From contig CAWFQB010000001.1 in assembly GCA_963817895.1 (NCBI GenBank), positions 832,001 through 896,000 on the forward strand: a stretch of DNA of 64,000 nt, read 5' to 3'. The stretch's first letter is position 1; the number at the start of each line of letters is the position of its first letter. A model generated the notes under the pieces. The model was not told where the DNA came from, did no database searches, and was given only the letters and a program-made list of their open reading frames with translations. Shown here piece by piece: positions 50,129-61,522 of this stretch. Made by a program: the position numbers and the translations under genes. This DNA is from an uncultured Chthonomonadaceae bacterium. Lineage in GTDB: Bacteria > Armatimonadota > Chthonomonadetes > Chthonomonadales > Chthonomonadaceae.

Positions 50129-50159
50129 ACCCCGTATTGTGAGTTTGAGGAGGTGCGCG

Positions 50160-51644
50160 ATGGCATTGGTAATTGCGTTGGGGGCGATTTTCGCCCTGTT
50201 TATATTCACGATTGCGATGGTAACGGCGTTTTTGCGCAGCGTTGCCGCAGGACAAATTCTGTTGGTGAAAGGCTGGAAAGGGAGCGGCCTGCACATTTTT
50301 CGCGGGCCGACCAAAGCGTTTGTCGTGCCGGTCTTCAACGAAGTGCGTTCGATTCCCGCGCAGGCGATCAACGTAGATATTGAGATCACCGACCAGACGG
50401 CGGATGTGGACGCGAACGGCCGGCCCGCGCCCGTCAAGGTCACGGTCAAGGCGTCCGCGATTGTCAGCGTGGGCGAAAGCGACGCGATGGTGAACACCGC
50501 CGCCAACAAGTTCTTTTCCAAGCCGCCCGGGGATCAGCTCTCCACACTGACGGACGTGCTTTCGTCGGCGGGACGCCGCGCCATCAACCTGCTCAAGCAC
50601 GATCAGCTGTTCAATGCCCGCCCCGCGTCGGCACAGGCGCCGACGGGAAGCGCGTTGATTGTGCCGCCGGTAGACGCGCTCACGGTTCGGCAGCCCGGCT
50701 CGGATTGCGCTGGTACGCGACGATGACGAACTGGCGGTGATTATCAAGGACGCCTGTTCGCGCGAACTGCTGGATCTGGGCCTGTCGTTCAACAGTCTGA
50801 ACATCAAGGCGGTTTTGAGCGAAGTGGCCGAAGCGCGACGCCGCGAATCCGCCGCCCGCGCCAAAGCCAGCGCGGATGTCGTGCAGGCGCAGGAAGAGCA
50901 GCGCTCCCGCATCGCGCAACTGGAAGCGCAGCAGAAAGTCAACGATCAGGAACGTGCCCTGAACATGCAGATCGCCTCCAACGGCGCGTCCATCGCCCGC
51001 GCCGAGGCCGAAAAGCAGGCGGCGGTGCGCGAACAGCGTTCGGCGGAACTGGCCGCGAGCCAGATCACGCAGGCCCGCGCCGACGCCGAGCAGAACGTGA
51101 TTCAGCAGGAGGCGGAAGGCCGGGCGCAGGCGGCGCGCATCCGCGCCATTGCCGAAGCGGAAGCCGACGCCATCCGCATGAAGGCGCGAGGCGCTTGACG
51201 CAGGCGGGCGGGCGTACCTGGATCTGCGGCGGCTGGAAATGGCCCCGGCGCTGACCCGCGAAGTCGCCAACGCGCTTGCCAACGGCCAGTTCGTCAACTT
51301 CGGCACGATCCGGCGAAGGCGGGCACAGCGCGGCCGCCTCCGGCTCCGACGACGTGATGCGCGTGGTGCAAACCCTGATGGCCGCGCAGGTGATCACAGG
51401 CGGCAACGGCATGAACGGCAACAATAACAATAACGGCGGCAATGGCAACGGCAATGGCACGCGGCGCGAGATGCTTCCCGCGATCCCCGTAACCACTACG
51501 ATGGACATGGAACCGCCCATCGTGACGCGCCCCGCGTCGGTACACAAACCCACCGCCTGCGCGTCCGCCGCAGACGAGGAGATAGGGAACCGCAAAGTAC
51601 GCGAAACACACGAAAAGACGGACAAAAGAACAAAAAGAGCATAG
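50160..51644 (+). CDS. Flotillin-like SPFH protein (several frameshifts; true stop may be 51585)
   Basis: N-terminal TM, FVVPVF, SPFH core, AEA/EA-rich coil (AIAEAEADAIR). Confidence 0.75.
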
Positions 51645-51702: not shown

Positions 51703-51724
51703 TGAAAAGAATTTTGGTGGTTTT

Positions 51725-52823
51725 ATGAAATCTTTGATTGGATTGACAACAGAAGAATTGGGAGCGGTCGCGCAGGAAGCGGGGCAGCCCGCGTATCGGG
51801 GCAAGCAGATCGCCGCATGGCTGTATAAGCGCGGCGCCGAAACGCTGGACGACATGACCGATCTGCCGCGCGACTTGCGGGCGCGTCTGGCGGAAATCGT
51901 ATACGGTCGGACTGCCCGACTGTGGCGCATAAGGATGTATCGCCGGATGAGACGGTCAAGTACCTGATGCGGCAGGCGGACGGCCTGACGATTGAAAGCG
52001 TGTATCTGCCCTACCCGGAGCGCGTTTCCGTCTGTCTGTCCACGCAGGTCGGCTGCGCCGGCGGGCTGCACGTTTTGCGCCACCGCGCAGGGCGGACTGG
52101 CGCGTAATCTGACGGCGGGCGAAATCGTCGGGCAGTTTTTGCGGATGCAGAAGGAGAGCGAACGCCGCATCTCGCATGCGGTCTACATGGGCATGGGCGA
52201 GCCGCTGTGGAACTACGAAAACGTCATCAAGAGCCTGCGACTGTTGGGCAACGAAGTCGGCGTGTCGCTGCGCAACCTGACGGTTTCCACGGTCGGCGTC
52301 GTGCCGGGTATTCGCGCGCTTGCGAAGGAAGAGTTGCCGATCACGCTGGCCCTGTCGCTTCACGCGCCCAACGACGAACTGCGCGCCCAACTGATCCCCA
52401 CCGCCCGCAAATGGAAACTGGACGAGATTCTGGACGCCTGCGGCGAGTACGCGCGGAACACGCACCGCAATCTGACGTTCGAATACCTGCTCATCGGCGG
52501 CGTCAACGACAAGCCGGAACACGCCCGCGAACTGGCCACATCTGCTCAAAGCGAAAAAACTGCCGGGCAACGTCAACCTGATCCCGTTCAACTATGTGGA
52601 AACCTCGCAGGGCTTTCAGCGTCCGACCAGAGAAAGCGTGACACGCTTCCGGCAGGAGTTGGAAAAGGCGGGACGCGTCGCCACGCAGCGCATGACGCGC
52701 GGCCATGCCATCGCCGCCGCCTGCGGCCAACTGCGCCGCAATGTAGAACAAAATGGCGTCAATGCCCTGCCCGTTCATCCCCGTAAAGGCGTTGAAAACA
52801 TTATCGCTCTGGCATCTCAATGA
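51725..52823 (+). CDS. rlmN: Dual-specificity RNA methyltransferase RlmN (frameshifted)
   Basis: CLSTQVGC...CTFCAT, MGMGEP, TVSTVG, SLHAPND, TFEYLL, NLIPFN, AACGQL. Confidence 0.92.
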
Positions 52824-52861: not shown

Positions 52862-54271
52862 ATGAGCCTGACTGTCGAATTCAAGCCGCCGGTAGCCGAG
52901 CGTTTCCACATATGGGCGGAAGGATTGGAAATTCCCGTTGAATTGTATGTCGGGATGTTGTTTATGGAGTTGTTCGGGTTGGACTGGCAGTGCCCCGATA
53001 GTCCGTACCATCTGCCAATGCCCGAAGTAGAGTTTCCTACGGAGGCCGAACGCATGACCGATGATTTTGTCAATAGTTTCAGGAAAGTATGTGAACAAAA
53101 CCGGAATGCAGTCACTGAAGCAGTTGCTCATAAGCACAATCTTATGGCAGACGTGGACCGGCTGGAGCGACAATCGGCTCACCTGCAACATGAAGCCACA
53201 GATGCCCTGCGAGATGGCGACCGTGAAAACGCGAAACATCAACTCAAACAAAAAGCCTCCTGCGACAACGAACTACTTGCGCGCCGGGAAGAACTTTCTG
53301 CCGCTGAAACTGCCGTTGAAGACCTCAAGCGGCACATTCGACAGGCCGCAGAACAAATTAAAGCAAGAGCAATGGAACTTGCAGCGCGCCATCCTGAAAA
53401 CATGAGTGCGGAGGAACGTCCCGCGTTTGCCGCCGAATTGCTTGCCAAATTGGATTCTCTGTCGTTAGACGCCGAAAGAACGCTGTCAGGAACCGGAACC
53501 AACAATATCGAGGCCAGTGCGATAGAAGCGGCAACAGAGGAAGCGGAAGCGGCAAACGCCGCGCCGCAAATTAGCGTACAATCACCTGTACCTGTTCAGC
53601 CAACCAGTCTTACACTGGAAATTTCGCCCGCAGCGGAAACCTTGCTTGAGACGGAAGCACAGGCGCGGGGTTTCTCATCTTCGGAGTATCTGAACGCGGT
53701 TGCGGAACAGTTGGTCAATCTGGCGGATTTGGTGACTCCGGCAGGCATGACGCCAAAACGCGACCCGAATGATTATCAGAATATTCCAATTGAGGAAGTC
53801 CTCAATCAGGCAGTGCAGGAAATGAAGGAAAGCCAAATTCGAAACCGTGAGTATGCGGTTCAAGCGATTACGCAAAAGAACAATTTACAGGCCGAGGTAG
53901 ATAAAGAAGAACGCATGTTGGCCGAGTTTAAGCGCAAAGCGTTGAAAACGCTGGATGAGGGCAACCGCCCTCTGGCGGAACAGTTTTATAAAGAGCGACA
54001 GCGGCACGAGCAAACCTGCGAGATCATGCGCGGATTGCTGACGCAAGCGACGGAGATTGCCGAAAAGGTCAAAGAACGTATCAAACAGGAGGAAGAGCGC
54101 ATTCGTGTGCGTACTTCAAAAGCCCTGTTGCTTAAAGCCAACCTTGCCGCGTCCGTCATTGCCTTCCGCCTTGATATGCTTCAGGAGGAGATGCCAGCGC
54201 CGGACGACAAACAGTTCCAGCAGGATTTTGATGATTGGGTTCAGGCGCAGAAACCGCCATATGCCGATTAA
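52862..54271 (+). CDS. Tandem [RHH-like + PspA/IM30 hairpin] x2 protein
   Basis: Two units: LT.E......L...A...G.....Y module followed by PspA-like LNQAVQEMKE...AVQAITQKNNL...AL..G.R.LA. Confidence 0.75.
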   Translation: MSLTVEFKPPVAERFHIWAEGLEIPVELYVGMLFMELFGLDWQCPDSPYHLPMPEVEFPTEAERMTDDFVNSFRKVCEQNRNAVTEAVAHKHNLMADVDRLERQSAHLQHEATDALRDGDRENAKHQLKQKASCDNELLARREELSAAETAVEDLKRHIRQAAEQIKARAMELAARHPENMSAEERPAFAAELLAKLDSLSLDAERTLSGTGTNNIEASAIEAATEEAEAANAAPQISVQSPVPVQPTSLTLEISPAAETLLETEAQARGFSSSEYLNAVAEQLVNLADLVTPAGMTPKRDPNDYQNIPIEEVLNQAVQEMKESQIRNREYAVQAITQKNNLQAEVDKEERMLAEFKRKALKTLDEGNRPLAEQFYKERQRHEQTCEIMRGLLTQATEIAEKVKERIKQEEERIRVRTSKALLLKANLAASVIAFRLDMLQEEMPAPDDKQFQQDFDDWVQAQKPPYAD

Positions 54272-54985
54272 CCGCAGCCATTTTGCTATACGTACTTTTA
54301 TTCGCTGTCGCGCTACGAACAGGTTTCTCTCCTCTAACTAATGAAGCGCGTCCGCTTCGCTAAGACGCGCTCATTGAAGTTGCACAGCAAGGAGAGGGGC
54401 CGTGTCCACAAGTGGACGCCCGGTGAGGTATGCTCACGCTGGATTTGCCGCCGGAAGTGGAAACGCGCCTTGTGGAAGAAGCCATGCGGCGGGGTTTGCC
54501 AGTCTCCGAAGTCGTCACGTTGCTGGTGCAGGGATATTTTTGGCCTGCCGAGTCGTCTCTTCTAACGGAGTGGTATCGACAGGAGAGTCGGCGCGGACTG
54601 TTCCTCATCAAATCCAAAGAAACGCAGATCGAATTGCGCGAAAGGCTTGTCGAGCCATTAACGCAAGTCAAGAATTTAGAATCAGAAATCGGGCGGCAGG
54701 AACGCGAGGTTGCTCGCTGTGAACGGGAAGCGATTCTGGCGGCGCAAAAGGGTGAACGCGCCGAGTCGCTGCAAGCGTATCAGAAGCGGGTTCTGCACGA
54801 ACAGCGACGCGGCGAACTCCAACTGAAATTACCCGATGCGACAGCGGAATCGGAAAAGCTGCGTAAGGAACTTATCCGCAGTGAAGCAAACGTATCAACA
54901 GGTGTAACTGTTCCCCTGCCTAAAGGCGAGGGCTTTAACGTTCCAATTCTCTACCTTACGATAGAGCGGACATTTAGAGGCTGAG

Positions 54986-56065
54986 TTACAAAGCAGCCCG
55001 TGTTTCCAGTCCTTTATAGGCAATGTTGCAAGCCGCATTGACATCTGCATTGGATTGGAAACCACATTGGAGACACAGGAAACTGGCTTGACTTTTCCGG
55101 TTGGCTTTGTCACAGTGACCACATTGCGAACAAGTACGAGAGGTGTTACGCGGGTCAACGAGTACCACGCGGATACCTGCCTCTGCCGCTTTGTATTCGA
55201 TGAACTGCCGCAACTGATGAAAAGCCCAACCGCCTAAGAGCCAGCGCATGTTCGCAGAATAACCGTCTGCCCGTTGCCTGATGTGGGTCAGGTTTTCCAG
55301 AGCAATTGCCTTCCTTGCGTTCCATGCGGTACTGACGATAGATTTACTGATGTTGTGGTTAGCCCAACGCACAAACCGAGATTGCTTCTTGCGAATCTTG
55401 CACAGACGCCGTTTTGCGCCTTTCTTGCCACACGACTGCAAACCGCGTCGGAACTCCCGGTAACGCCTGCGACATGCTTTGACAGGTTCGCCGCTGTACT
55501 GGTTGCCCTCACTGTCGGTGGCGACTTCCGTAATACCGAGGTCAACGCCCAACATACCGTTAGAAGTATCGGCAGACGGCGGTTCTGGCTTACGAACCGA
55601 GATAGCAAGCATAAAGACGCCGTTCTCGTAAAGAAGGTCAACCTGCCCGATGTTCGGTTTACCTGCAAGCCAACGGCGTTGATACGAGCCGCAATCCAGC
55701 CGTATCTTTTCGCGCCCGTGCAGGGTTGTCATTGAGGCATAGGTAACGCCAGTAAGACGAAAAACCCGTTCATCATAAATAACGGCAGAGTAGTCGCCGA
55801 AGACAGGCTGGATAGATTTATCGCGGCGATAAGTTTCCAACACCTTGCCGATAGCGCGGACGGTCAACTGAGACGGCAAGCCAAAACGTTCCCGCGCTTC
55901 ATGGTAACAGGCCGCATGAAGGGGAACCTGACGAAATACCTGTTGTTCAAACGCAACCTGACTAATCCAATTACAGGCGGCATTGAACTGCCGAAAGACT
56001 TCTAAAAATTCTTTCTTTTGTTCGTCAGTAGGTAACATTTTGACTTTGATTACTCTCACTAGCAT
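54986..56065 (-). CDS. tnpB: RNA-guided endonuclease TnpB
   Basis: RuvC GVDLG, ALENL, NADVNAACNI; zinc finger CSQC/CLQC; intact 359-aa frame. Confidence 0.95.
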   Translation of the reverse strand: MLVRVIKVKMLPTDEQKKEFLEVFRQFNAACNWISQVAFEQQVFRQVPLHAACYHEARERFGLPSQLTVRAIGKVLETYRRDKSIQPVFGDYSAVIYDERVFRLTGVTYASMTTLHGREKIRLDCGSYQRRWLAGKPNIGQVDLLYENGVFMLAISVRKPEPPSADTSNGMLGVDLGITEVATDSEGNQYSGEPVKACRRRYREFRRGLQSCGKKGAKRRLCKIRKKQSRFVRWANHNISKSIVSTAWNARKAIALENLTHIRQRADGYSANMRWLLGGWAFHQLRQFIEYKAAEAGIRVVLVDPRNTSRTCSQCGHCDKANRKSQASFLCLQCGFQSNADVNAACNIAYKGLETRAAL

Positions 56066-56100
56066 GGTATAATTATACCCTGTTTTCAAGGAAGGTACAA
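56046..56100. promoter_or_regulatory. Back-to-back promoters sharing palindrome GGTATAATTATACC
   Basis: Minus: TTGTAC-17-TATAAT-6 nt-ATG (leaderless tnpB). Plus: TTGATT-16-TATAAT with extended TG. Confidence 0.6.
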
Positions 56101-56580
56101 GGGGATTGGAAAGCCCGTTCCTGAGAGAACGGTTTCGCAACAGGAAATCCATTCGGGCGTCCACGCGAAGGGAAGGACACCCGGCTAAAGCGCGCGTGTC
56201 TCTTGGATTTGTCTTATGATCGAACTGCTGCGCATGAAATTGCAGCGTAACCGCGCCGACATTTATCTGGCCCGCCCCACATTTGATCGTAGCGTCGAGT
56301 ACGAACTGGAAACCAACATTCGTAATTACGCCTCGGAAACCGTATGGAACGCGAAGTACGAGGAGTGGATTGCGGCGCATCAGGATACCGTTCCCGAAGA
56401 AGTTCCCTCTGAGGCAGCGGCAATGAAGCAGCTTGGCGAACAAACGCAACAGCAGATTGACAAACTAATTCAACGACTTGATGAACTGCATAACACAGAC
56501 AAGCCCGCGAAACAGGAACCATCCGAATAAAATTGTTCAAACACAATCGCATAGCGAGTCCCCCTGTATACCGCGCTTCC

Positions 56581-57327
56581 ATGTCGCAGACAGTGTCTTC
56601 GTTCGCAGGACGGTTGGCCGCAGGCGTATCTAACCGGCAAAGAAATTTAAATGGTATATGCCGGTTCAGTAGCCGGTTGTCTCTGGTCTATCTTGTTTTT
56701 GGCCTTGCATTTACAGGGGGTTGCGGCAAACAGAAACCAACCCCGACGCAGGGCGCAACGGCTAAATCAGAAGTGGCAACGCCGCGCACAAACGGCAAGG
56801 CCGCAGAAGACAAAAAGGCGGAACTGCCGGGAGCGGTACGGGGAACCGGCTGGCATATCCCGTGGTACGCGCCCGACCCGAAACACCCGAATGGGCCTGT
56901 GCAGCGCGTGCTGGTGGCGGACGCGAAACAGGGCGCAATGGACAGCGACAAAAATTTTGCCCGCGTTCGGCTGACCGACGTACACGCCACGCTGTATCAC
57001 GAGGGCAAGCCGTCCGCAACGCTTGACGCGCCCCATGTCACCACCAACGAGCATGACCGCGTGATTGTGGCGACAGGCGGCGTTACCATTCACGCGCTGA
57101 TTAGCCCGCGCGCTTCGCAAAAGCGTGTTGTCGTGCCGCCCGATTCGACCGTCACGGCGGATAAAGTTGTCTGGGATTCGCATAGACCCGAAGTGGTTTG
57201 CACCGGACACGCGCGGCTGACCAGCAAACAGCCCGGTTCGCCCGCGATTGAAAGTTACTCGGAAAAGATTATTTACAACACGGAAACCGGCGATATGGAT
57301 TTCCGCTATAACCCGTTGGGAAAGTAA
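56581..57327 (+). CDS. lptC: LptC-like periplasmic jellyroll (lipo)protein
   Basis: Hydrophobic anchor ending GGC; ATLY..G, ATGGV, TADKVVWD, CTG; first gene of the lpt cluster; start codon uncertain. Confidence 0.6.
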   Translation: MSQTVSSFAGRLAAGVSNRQRNLNGICRFSSRLSLVYLVFGLAFTGGCGKQKPTPTQGATAKSEVATPRTNGKAAEDKKAELPGAVRGTGWHIPWYAPDPKHPNGPVQRVLVADAKQGAMDSDKNFARVRLTDVHATLYHEGKPSATLDAPHVTTNEHDRVIVATGGVTIHALISPRASQKRVVVPPDSTVTADKVVWDSHRPEVVCTGHARLTSKQPGSPAIESYSEKIIYNTETGDMDFRYNPLGK

Positions 57328-59445: not shown

Positions 59446-60370
59446 ATGCCTGAACAACTACTTGAAATAACCGCCATAAATTTGATTAAGAAGTATCGCG
59501 GGAGGCCGGTCGTCAACGACATCAGCCTTGACGTGCGGCAGGGCGAAGTCGTCGGCCTGCTCGGTCCCAACGGCGCGGGCAAAACCACGACCTTCTATAT
59601 GATTGTCGGGCTGGTCAAGCCGCATCGCGGGCAAGGTGCTGCTGGACGGGCAGGACATTACGCGCCGCCCGATGTACAAACGCGCCCGCGCGGGTATCAG
59701 TTATCTGCCGCAGGAAGCGTCGGTTTTCCGCAACCTGTCCGTGCAGGAGAACATTCACCTTGTCCTGCAAATGCAGCGCATGGGCCGAAAGCAGCGGAAC
59801 GAACGCGCCGATGAACTGATGGAACAACTGCGCGTCACGGAGCAGCGGCATCAGGTGGCGCGGACACTTTCGGGTGGGCAGCGGCGGCGCGTGGAAATCG
59901 CCCGCGCCCTCGCGTCCAACCCGAAATTCATTCTGCTGGACGAGCCGTTTACGGGCGTAGACCCCAAAGCCATTGAGGACATCGAAGATATTATCGTCAG
60001 CCTGACCCGATCTCAGGAGCGCATCGGCATCTTAATCACCGACCACAACGTCGAGGCCATGCTGCGCATCACGGAGCGCGCGTACATTGTGGCGGACGGC
60101 CAAATTCGCGTGGCCGGCAAATCCAGCGAATTGATGTACGACCCGGAAGCCCGCCGCGCATATTTCGGCGAGCGTTTCGGCCAGCCCCGCGATACCGCCC
60201 GCGAACAGGCGGAAGAAGCCGCCCGCCGCGCTGCCGAAGAGGAACTCCGCCGCGCCAGTGGCGAGTGGGACGATGAGGAAGAAAAGGAAAAGGAAGAGGA
60301 GAAACCGAATTCCCCACAACCTGATCCTCAAGACTCCAACCCGCCTCCCGACAAGGACACACCAGAATGA
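59446..60370 (+). CDS. lptB: LPS export ABC transporter ATPase (frameshift near 59630)
   Basis: [56 protein letters not shown]. Confidence 0.93.
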
Positions 60371-61522
60371 AATTGATAGACAAGGTCGTCCTGAAAGACC
60401 TGATCGGGCCATTTATCAACGGCATGTTTATGTTCATCCTGCTTGTGTTTACGGCAGGGTTTCTGTTTCAGGCGACCACGCTGCTGGTGCAGGGCGTGCC
60501 GCTGGTGATGGTGCTGAAATTTATTTTGTACGTGCTGCCGAGCATCGTCACGCAGACGTTTCCGATGGCGATGCTGCTGGCCGCGCTGATGGCGTTCGGG
60601 CGGCTGTCCTCGGATCGGGAAGCGGTTGCCATTTTCGCGGCGGGGATTTCGTTTCCGCGCATGGCGCGACCCGTGATTCTCATGGGCGTGGTGGTGAGCG
60701 GGATGGCGTTCGCGTGGAATGAACTGGTTGTGCCGCCCGCCAGTACCGCCGCCGCGAAACTCAAGCGCGAAGCCGTTGCGGGCCTGACCAAAATCAGACA
60801 AACAACTCTCGTTTCCGCTCATGTCCGCCGACAACAAAGTTATCGAAGGGTTCATCAAGATAGATCACGGCTTTGATGAGCGCACCAATACAGTTCGCGG
60901 CGTAACCGTCACCCATTACAGCCAAGACCCGGCGCACAAGGGCGAAGTGGAAGTGGAAGTGCATTGCGACCATGCGGTCGTGAGCGGGCAAAGTGGGCTG
61001 GACTGGAAATATTACGACGGCTACGCGAAAATGCCCGAATGGGACAAGAACACCGGGCGGCTTGAAAGCGTCCATATCCTTGACTTTACAGAATTGCAGG
61101 CATTGCCCAAAGGCGCGACAATGGGCAAGTCGTTCAACGAGATTCTCAACACGCAGCGCGTGGACGCCGATACCCGCAGTTTCCGCGAACTGCGCGACGA
61201 AATCCGTTCCGACTACAAAAAACAGCATATCTCCGATGCGCGCGGCAAAGAGGTAGACCTGTATGGTAAAATTGCTCTGCCGCTTGCCAGCATCATCTTC
61301 GGGCTTGTGGGCGCGGCGTTGGGCATCAGCACCCAGCGCGGAGCCAGCCGCACGGTCGGCTTCGGCATGGCCCTGTTCATCGTGTTTGTCTACTGGGTGT
61401 TTTATCGCGCTATGTGGGTCGCCGGTCAAAGCGGCAGCGTGTCCCCCATTCTCGCCGCGTTCGCGGCAGACATCGTAGGCCTGGCCGTCGGACTTATGCT
61501 GGCGGTGCGGGCGTCGAGGTAG
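60367..61522 (+). CDS. lptF: LPS export permease LptF/LptG (frameshift near 60800)
   Basis: PMAMLLA.L..FGRLS.D.E..A..A.GIS, NELVVP, KIALPLA, GFG. Confidence 0.88.

Follow-up and report, generated by a model that had tools for sequence, protein, structure and literature searches.

In polymers of Vipp1, a member of the PspA/Vipp1/IM30 family (PF04012) of bacterial ESCRT-III proteins, helix α5 binds the hairpin tip (PMC8281802, PMC11919738), and Vipp1 lacking α5 forms neither rings nor filaments (PMC8281802); removal of the first helix from Synechocystis IM30 does not prevent ring formation (PMC6374351). A soluble hairpin fragment, PspA(1–144), is reported to be capable of controlling transcription by way of PspF (PMC6003685). 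In the PspA–PspF, LiaRS and ClgR systems the DNA-binding protein is separate, and some pspA operons contain an RHH protein as a separate gene. Fusions make up less than 2% of PspA homologues in a survey of PSP systems, which gives only tandem, NlpC/P60 and PspAA types. RHH proteins are described as always carrying Lys or Arg at strand position 2 or 6 (PMC6547453), and in AvtR, F TraY and the WYL1 NTD two RHH motifs of one chain form a pseudo-dimer (PMC6547453; 10.1101/2024.12.19.629322). Here we analyze a 64,000-nucleotide stretch of Chthonomonadaceae DNA (hereafter designated the window), in which RHH module and PspA hairpin are almost certainly joined in one chain, unlinked to pspA.

Two RHH–PspA units in one open reading frame

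The initial annotation had read two such units in ORF A and a third in the adjacent, IS-split gene B, and these ORFs are indeed present with the quoted motifs. The features of the locus, all given for the window, are as follows.

51713..52823, + strand: rlmN-type radical SAM gene, frameshifted in the assembly; borders the insertion site upstream
52862..54271, + strand: ORF A, 469 aa; RHH1, hairpin 1, acidic linker, RHH2, hairpin 2, helix of the W-x3-F-x2-W type
52862..52972, + strand: RHH module 1, aa 1–37, diverged; E2–7, H9–22 and H26–37 in the AlphaFold model
53042..53389, + strand: PspA α1–α2/3 hairpin 1, aa 61–176; PF04012 E 3.5e-8, aligned with Vipp1 8qfv residues 21–140
53603..53734, + strand: RHH module 2, aa 248–291; E248–253, H256–268 and H273–291 in the AlphaFold model
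53789..54190, + strand: PspA hairpin 2, aa 310–443; 56–61% identity to the canonical PspA of the genome
54206..54250, + strand: α4 remnant with a family-specific Phe/Trp motif; ORF A stops 6 residues on, without α5
54430..54903, + strand: gene B 5' part, RHH module 3 followed by hairpin 3 (ORF 54430–54984)
54904..56215, − strand: IS200/IS605-type element with tnpB only (ORF 54986–56065); NF040570, 159 bits against a cut-off of 100
56216..56530, + strand: gene B 3' part, end of α3, Trp-motif helix and short C-terminal helix (ORF 56216–56530)
56533..57327, + strand: lptC-like gene, downstream boundary; directly after rlmN in most family genomes

ORF A matches the Pfam profile PspA_IM30 (PF04012) with 73.6 bits against a cut-off of 33.9; the units aligning to this profile are unit 2 (E 4.5e-14, profile 25–144), unit 1 (E 3.5e-8, profile 23–130; 33.8 bits, just below the 33.9 cut-off) and, more distantly, unit 3 (E 0.0023, profile 36–127; 18 bits, below the cut-off). 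Vipp1 and PspA were also the top structural matches, with hairpin 2 superposing on residues 21–147 of Vipp1 8qbw at an rmsd of 1.2 over 127 residues. The profile and structural matches confirm the PspA identity proposed for the helical segments and rule out a generic coiled coil.

ORF A as modelled by AlphaFold has just two strands, residues 2–7 and 248–253, which pair into one RHH pseudo-dimer; with unit 2 modelled alone, no strand is formed at the position of module 2. Structure comparison aligned the paired modules of the model with AvtR 4hv0 (Z 10.3, rmsd 2.8, 85/91 aligned) and with the F-relaxosome chain 9f0x_E (Z 9.8, rmsd 3.3, 88 aligned), and TacA2 was among the Foldseek matches; the ESM Atlas matches, all under 0.9, serve as leads only. 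The predicted fold is a β-α-α motif with a two-stranded ribbon dimer, in agreement with the RHH-like module suggested originally. Unlike AvtR, F TraY and the WYL1 NTD, ORF A has its two motifs 210 residues apart with a PspA hairpin between them, and most members of the fusion family are single-unit. As judged from the models, ORF A can close an RHH within one chain, and single-unit members would need to homodimerize. An assembly artefact was considered on account of frameshifts in neighbouring genes and was ruled out, since ORF A is a single open frame with three independent two-unit homologues (P0009, P0010 and P0156).

By sequence, none of the N-terminal modules of the window reaches a Pfam cut-off, the best match being RHH_5 for unit 3 (E 0.056). 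Against a profile of stand-alone modules, for which the null maximum was 10.5 bits, module 2 scored 27.7 bits and module 1, the most diverged, 7.9 bits, which is within the null range. The N-terminal positions of the family profile matched MazE7 in the PDB (E 0.013), followed by a CopG-family regulator, Arc, CopG and NikA at E 0.1–0.6, and weak matches at E ≤ 0.1 were to ParD (6/42 members), FitA-like (3) and NikA-like (2) domains and also to RHH_1 and CopG_antitoxin. An RHH-only profile of 8 sequences retrieved mostly designed repeat proteins from the PDB, with Arc at E 1.1, and one stand-alone module retrieved ParD 2an7 at E 1.5.

Helices lost and residues kept

The initial annotation had helix 0 replaced by the RHH module. 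This holds for the three units of the window, which represent a window-type subgroup: units 1 and 2 have acidic linkers, with an amphipathicity no higher than that of shuffled sequences, and unit 3 has a short and acidic one. A second subgroup (group 2) keeps a basic segment at the α0 position (positive in 19/19, significantly amphipathic in 6/19). A derivation of RHH helix B from α0, as its relic, was considered and rejected, because the pattern of helix B also occurs in stand-alone modules.

The suspected truncation of the C-terminal polymer helices was confirmed, as both ORF A units end before α5. Across 48 fused units, 0–6 of the 26 residues at PspA positions 197–222 were matched, against a median of 16 in canonical PspA; the tail helix of gene B may be a partial exception, and a few other members carry a C-terminal helix possibly mimicking α5C. 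In place of a full α4, the units have a new aromatic motif, with Trp at PspA position 176 in 39/48 and Phe at position 173 in 32/48. Canonical residues are kept in the window-type hairpins (R45 in 28/29, T53 in 26/29, A88 in 27/29, L87 in 22/29 and F91 in 18/29), and in group 2 the hairpin tip is altered, L87 being Gln in 12/19; the retained residues may reflect only descent or coiled-coil packing. The fusion proteins are small and predicted to be soluble. Neither ORF A unit has α5, so that these units would at most cap a PspA polymer or be sequestered, which is more plausible than the co-assembly originally proposed.

Gene B and its insertion

The IS split of gene B (54430–56530) is borne out by an intact orthologue of 263 aa at the same site in a related genome (G002), to which both halves align contiguously, the 3' part with 63% identity to its C-terminal part, and by the TnpB match above the NCBIfam cut-off. 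The element has subterminal hairpins at both ends and no inverted repeats, and the ORF list of the window gave no tnpA within the insert. The ribosome-binding site and start of gene B sit at the end of a repeat element. A promoter-like site at 56046–56073 (+) inside the IS element faces the lpt genes; it is a consensus match only, because four such sites were found against 3.7 expected.

A genus-specific insertion of a family-restricted fusion

The position between nfeD–flotillin and the lpt operon had been taken as fitting a role in envelope stress. An lptC-like gene does lie downstream, but rlmN separates flotillin from ORF A, and the label nfeD rests on resemblance, with no Pfam or NCBIfam match. 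Moreover, in 27/29 other family genomes lptC is the immediate neighbour of rlmN, with no fusion between them, so that the locus is a genus-specific insertion and the argument from its position is weakened. The suggested search for the same architecture did identify a family, with at least 45 among the 150 listed 50%-identity representatives carrying the RHH–PspA fusion; it occurs in 7/68 genomes of the class, all Chthonomonadaceae (7/42 within the family). The other copies lie in unrelated surroundings, two of them adjoining toxin–antitoxin genes (in one case a ParE pair, in the other a truncated PIN pair), and the fusion family showed no conserved neighbour and no candidate partner gene travelling with it.

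The hairpins descend from the PspA of the lineage itself, with 40/47 units closest to family PspA, and a possible single origin received a support of 86 in quick LG+G4 trees of 127 columns with long branches. Purifying selection acts on RHH and hairpin alike (dN/dS 0.08–0.29 in two orthologue pairs), and in the G001 orthologue module 1 is lost and module 2 is drifting (26% identity, dN/dS 0.43). Canonical pspA was found in 6/7 fusion-bearing genomes, the seventh being 67% complete, and no PspF or two-component genes were seen by eye among the ORFs beside the pspA of this genome. In the same lineage, PspA helices are also fused to an oxidoreductase, and two hairpins are inserted into Pnkp.

Strand residues of the RHH modules

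Lys or Arg at strand position 2 or 6 was present in 4/46 modules and in 0/3 of the window; position 6 is Asp or Glu in 35/46, and all 46/46 modules are net acidic (charge −1 to −6). DNA binding is uncertain, as the canonical basic strand residue is missing in 42/46 modules and every module is acidic. No motif was common to the upstream regions of 11 fusion genes, in a weak test by motif search; pspA promoters of 5 fusion-bearing and 20 other genomes showed no distinguishing motif, and the only element shared by these 25 upstream regions was a σ70-type promoter (17/25). The residue counts, together with the lack of a shared operator in these searches, weaken the DNA binding attributed to the fusion in the initial annotation.

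Other signatures are preserved. Strand position 4 is Thr in 29, Ser in 3 and Gln in 3 of 46 modules (Thr in 3/3 of the window), and the helix-B cap is Ser or Thr in 35/46. A small residue at position 2 is compatible with Met removal and is found in 27/35 N-terminal modules. Lys or Arg at strand position 1, 2 or 6 was found in 3/7 internal against 2/35 N-terminal modules, a post hoc comparison in which the three are related. Stand-alone antitoxin-like ORFs of the same genome (n = 13) share the non-basic strand, which points to a trait of the RHH subfamily rather than a loss after fusion.

Discussion

In the sequences and models, the fusion has an RHH module in place of α0, keeps α1–α3, reduces α4 to an aromatic motif and has lost α5. 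Unlike the PspA/Vipp1/IM30 proteins from which it descends, it is fast evolving and patchy. With the N-domains of RHH antitoxins (ParD, FitA, MazE7, TacA and VapB type) it shares the β-α-α fold, with weak matches, and the same module heads stand-alone ORFs beside PIN or HNH genes, but it has a PspA hairpin for the toxin-neutralizing tail, no cognate toxin and usually no basic strand residue. No RHH–PspA fusion was found in the literature searched. Collectively, the fusion is real and, as initially supposed, apparently undescribed, and it forms a family of proteins within the Chthonomonadaceae.

We tentatively propose that the fusion is a soluble, non-polymerizing PspA derivative acting as an RHH regulator titrated by opened PspA. 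The RHH would bind DNA, perhaps weakly or unusually, with the free N-terminal amine taking the role of the basic residue that is missing. Both hairpins would retain the surface that accepts α5 of a neighbouring PspA, so that opened or growing PspA assemblies could take up the dimer as an end cap, removing it from DNA under envelope stress. In more general terms, the fusion would be a one-component regulator with an ESCRT-III hairpin, whose RHH dimer binds DNA and whose hairpins read the assembly state of PspA via α5, the hairpin being a reusable PspA-docking tag; this too is possible rather than probable.

A doubtful but serious alternative is that the RHH serves dimerization only and that the protein, with no role in transcription, is a PspA decoy or end cap with two arms, restricting the length of PspA polymers or holding PspA off membranes. 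This would explain the acidic modules without a basic strand residue, the finding of no operator in the 11 fusion and 25 pspA upstream regions and the retention of both hairpins in G001 despite the loss of RHH1, and the oxidoreductase fusion and Pnkp insertions suggest use of the hairpin as a PspA-binding tag. Against it, the non-basic strand of the 13 stand-alone ORFs is a subfamily trait, and Thr4 and the helix-B cap are conserved.

It is unlikely that the protein is an RHH transcription factor whose hairpin, co-opted as a coiled coil for binding an effector or partner, has nothing to do with PspA polymers. The long branches, the new conserved aromatic motif, the unrelated gene neighbourhoods and, in group 2, a conserved surface of its own with a basic linker (19/19 positive) are consistent with such co-option, but unit 2 and its subgroup stay near canonical PspA (63% over the hairpin), and no gene accompanies the family as a candidate partner.

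Less probable again is an accessory gene, either an antitoxin-like orphan or nearly neutral, in which a pspA fragment was caught by a toxin–antitoxin-type RHH gene, spreading and decaying. In favour of this, small ORFs that precede PIN or HNH genes in this genome begin with the same module, copies adjoin the ParE and truncated PIN pairs, a BrnT-like ORF (name read by eye) lies at the same rlmN–lptC site in G023, a frameshifted copy occurs in 1/7 genomes, and in the window gene B is broken by the IS. Purifying selection acts on all parts, however, at least 45 representatives below 50% identity share a common architecture and motif, and no cognate toxin gene directly follows the fusion at either G001 locus or in G002, G003 and the window; the toxin beside the fusion in G067 and G016 comes with an antitoxin-like ORF of its own.

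Very unlikely is the version of the initial annotation, co-polymerization with canonical PspA that switches DNA binding: the hairpins of subunits j and j+1 do lie packed against each other, side by side, the C-terminal helix of gene B and a few members could mimic α5C, and IM30 rings form without the first helix (PMC6374351), but α5, so poorly matched in the fused units, is essential for rings and filaments (PMC8281802), and a dimeric RHH would occupy the lumen site where α0 stacks.

A natural PspA lacking α0 and α5 on an RHH dimer would either connect a bacterial ESCRT-III polymer directly to DNA or act as a natural cap or decoy for the polymer; no description of either was found in the literature searched. 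Interest is tempered by the patchy confinement of the fusion to one little-studied family and by sequence signs against ordinary DNA binding; its relevance lies in Psp regulation outside the PspF, LiaRS and ClgR lineages. If the regulator proposed here is true, it would provide direct polymer-to-promoter signalling in a lineage without a known Psp regulator, and the Chthonomonadaceae would carry a PspA-docking tag also on an oxidoreductase and an RNA-repair enzyme.

Genes and PspA hairpins

Three units, each consisting of a ribbon-helix-helix (RHH) module followed by the α1–α3 hairpin of PspA, are encoded by ORF A (units 1 and 2) and gene B (unit 3) as follows.

52862–54271, ORF A, 469 aa
From 54430, 5′ part of gene B
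54904–56215, IS-type element interrupting gene B, placed by alignment to the intact orthologue of genome G002
56216–56530, 3′ part of gene B
C1:493773–494627 (contig C1 of the same genome), canonical pspA, a separate gene

The insert codes for TnpB, above the NCBIfam cut-off, and the G002 orthologue at the same site encodes 263 aa. The initial assignment of the helical segments to PspA was confirmed by Pfam PspA_IM30 matches in both ORF A halves (E 3.5e-8 and 4.5e-14) and gene B (E 0.0023), every match beginning at profile position 23–36 and ending at 127–144, that is, the hairpin without helix 0 (α0, the membrane helix). Unit 2 shares 56–61% identity with the canonical PspA hairpin of the genome.

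A 27-base repeat (30 copies in the genome with ≤3 substitutions; window sites 56154–56180 and 54402–54422) is nested within other palindromic repeats and also within the left end of the gene B IS, and a variant immediately precedes the gene B start. The window genes for flotillin (50139–51644), rlmN (51713–52823), lptB (59446–60370) and the following permease (60367–61522) are split over frames; each is whole in the related genome G001, which suggests assembly errors.

RHH fold of the N-terminal module

No Pfam model matched the N-terminal module at its cut-off; the sub-cut-off matches were concordant (RHH_5, NikA-like, FitA-like and ParD), with ParD matching 6, FitA-like 3 and NikA-like 2 of 42 family members at E≤0.1. 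Against solved structures, the first 56–67 positions of the family profile matched MazE7 (E 0.013), a CopG-family regulator, Arc, CopG and NikA, and the same search also matched designed repeat proteins and CasDinG. The AlphaFold model of unit 2 alone (pLDDT 91) runs from an extended segment through two helices and the hairpin to a short final helix. In the full ORF A model (pLDDT 86–94 across the modules; pTM 0.38 overall), residues 2–7 and 248–253 form the only strands, so that the two modules are modelled as one pair. Among 48,161 chains searched, this pair aligned with AvtR (Z 10.3, rmsd 2.8, 85 residues, model range 4–288) and with F-relaxosome chain 9f0x_E (Z 9.8, 88 residues, range 1–292), which we infer to be TraY. 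AvtR and F TraY are described as tandem RHH in a single chain (PMC6547453; 10.1101/2024.12.19.629322).

Moreover, 13 small ORFs of the genome start with the same module; of the 11 whose gene neighbours were inspected, two immediately precede Pfam PIN genes, and two pairs were confirmed upstream of HNH genes. With a profile of ten stand-alone modules, 41 of 46 fused modules outscored all 966 shuffled or reversed controls, in a partly circular test, as the ORFs were first found using the window modules; module 1 scored within the null range. The module is, as modelled, an RHH fold, in line with the RHH-like character first ascribed to it.

Distribution and origin

The RHH-PspA fusion is a lineage-restricted family. 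When 1.84 billion representatives were searched with a profile, 400 matched at E≤0.001; among the best 150 of these, module plus hairpin occurred in 45, chosen by coverage and by reading. These 45 count the gene B fragment of the window itself and two rows cut at the N-terminus. Single-unit proteins of 210–310 aa predominate, and P0009, P0010 and P0156 repeat the two-unit layout of ORF A. The search of related genomes, proposed initially, recovered the full architecture in 7 of 68 class genomes (G000, G001, G002, G003, G016, G067 and, frameshifted, G021), all among the 42 of the window's family and in 0 of the other 26. Across 401 phylum genomes, no out-of-family match covered the module among the matches listed (67 unlisted; six candidates per genome scored). 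Scanning 185,579 species genomes with the pattern of a 21-member subgroup gave four loci, titled Chthonomonadaceae or Chthonomonadales. Ten proteins looked up were named 'phage shock protein A' (five) or unnamed (five). Tandem or partial PspA hairpins also occur in P0046, P0052, P0060, P0068 and P0111, two with a hydrophobic C-terminal segment.

In a 127-column tree of 47 fused units (one short row dropped) with PspAs from the family (15 of 32), the same order (12) and elsewhere (8), a branch with support 86 sets the fused units apart, by which a single origin is neither shown nor rejected; the family's PspA is closest for 40 of the 47. In the derived α4 motif that the units share, PspA position 173 is Phe in 32 of 48 and position 176 is Trp in 39. 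Comparing gene B with G002 gave a dN/dS of 0.29 for the RHH and 0.17 for the hairpin; the corresponding values in a metagenome pair were 0.08 and 0.09. Against the G001 orthologue, which has lost module 1, module 2 gave 0.43, and synonymous sites were saturated in hairpin 2.

Genomic context

The position between flotillin and the lpt operon, initially taken as functional support, is a genus-level insertion and offers little functional evidence. rlmN lies between flotillin and ORF A. Matches to rlmN occurred in 40 genomes, and 30 loci were fetched, one of them from G001. Of the other 29, 27 have lptC or lptA no more than 1.5 kb downstream and no fusion gene, and two end at contig edges; flotillin is upstream in 14. 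Three genomes of the window's genus differ at the rlmN-lptC site: one has both A and B, one an A-like gene, and one only B. The neighbourhood is not shared by the other fusion copies, which lie beside unrelated genes, two adjoining toxin-antitoxin pairs. Band-7/flotillin and YuaF-type genes are reported as pspA neighbours in other lineages (PSP survey).

The rlmN-lptC gap, apparently receptive to small inserted genes, contains a BrnT-like toxin ORF (named by eye) downstream of rlmN in G023 (L106). In metagenome loci L126–L129 (near relatives of one another) and L132, the fusion gene is directly 3′ of a HEAT-repeat-like ORF that shares its strand. Within the 260 bases preceding pspA, 17 of 25 family genomes (L004–L021 and related loci) share a conserved near-consensus sigma70-type promoter.

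Other PspA-hairpin fusions were also seen.

L027:5231–8896 (G023), P0061 and P0075, Pnkp RNA-repair enzyme (kinase, phosphoesterase, ligase) with two PspA hairpins between the phosphoesterase and ligase domains
L028–L034, L036–L038, L040 (G000:C4:847807–850083) and L041, 12 full-length ORFs with an α0-less PspA-like region, apparently including α4–α5, fused to a Gfo/Idh/MocA oxidoreductase, conserved family-wide; fragment in L035

Assembly and possible DNA binding

The replacement of helix 0 by the RHH module, as first suggested, holds in the window but not throughout the family. None of 25 window-type linkers is positively charged (4 of 29 were too short for the test), and their amphipathicity is no greater than that of shuffles, whereas group 2 linkers are basic in 19 of 19 and significantly amphipathic in 6, compared with 24 of 32 canonical α0 segments. 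Group 2 (P0008, P0012–P0022 and relatives; monophyletic, support 99) has a conserved hairpin surface of its own and this basic, partly amphipathic linker at the α0 position; its proteins may bind anionic membranes.

α5 is absent from the fused units (0–6 of 26 residues match, against a median of 16 in canonical PspA); gene B and a few others retain a short tail helix whose origin is uncertain. In Vipp1 polymers, as described, the hairpin tip of one subunit receives α5 from another, α0 helices stack in the lumen (PMC11919738), and α5 removal leaves no rings or filaments (PMC8281802; PMC6374351). Thus, ORF A units could presumably accept α5 and could not donate one, and would act as a cap or sequestered client rather than a co-polymer. 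The co-assembly with a canonical PspA polymer initially envisaged is accordingly disfavoured. Window-type hairpins retain many canonical residues, and the group 2 tip is altered.

DNA binding is the weak link of the proposed mechanism. Of 46 modules, 4 carry the basic residue described at strand position 2 or 6 of canonical RHH (PMC6547453), 35 have Asp/Glu at position 6, and all are net acidic; a motif search of upstream regions found no operator. Loss of function is nevertheless opposed by conservation of Thr4 and the helix-B cap in fused modules and by the same strand in the 13 stand-alone modules. The strand usually starts at Met1, and the residue after it is small in 27 of 35 cases, so that the free N-terminal amine could provide the missing charge; Arg is commoner in internal modules (3 of 7 versus 2 of 35, a post hoc comparison that is not independent).

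We tentatively read the fusion as a regulator titrated by PspA, a reading that is itself uncertain. A decoy or cap independent of DNA is nearly as likely; a regulator whose hairpin was co-opted is less likely, and an orphan or neutral gene is unlikely. Co-polymerization with PspA is very improbable, ORF A units having lost α5.

In the PSP survey as consulted (PMC11237479), tandem or fused domains (NlpC/P60, PspAA) occur in <2% of ~2,500 PspA homologues, RHH appears only as a separate gene, and Armatimonadota are not mentioned. The initial statement that no such protein was described agrees with the full-text literature searched, subscription journals being largely outside its scope, where no RHH-PspA fusion was found. 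The architecture is real and, apparently, undescribed; it is confined to one lineage, and the fusion is a PspA variant rather than a demonstrated new system.
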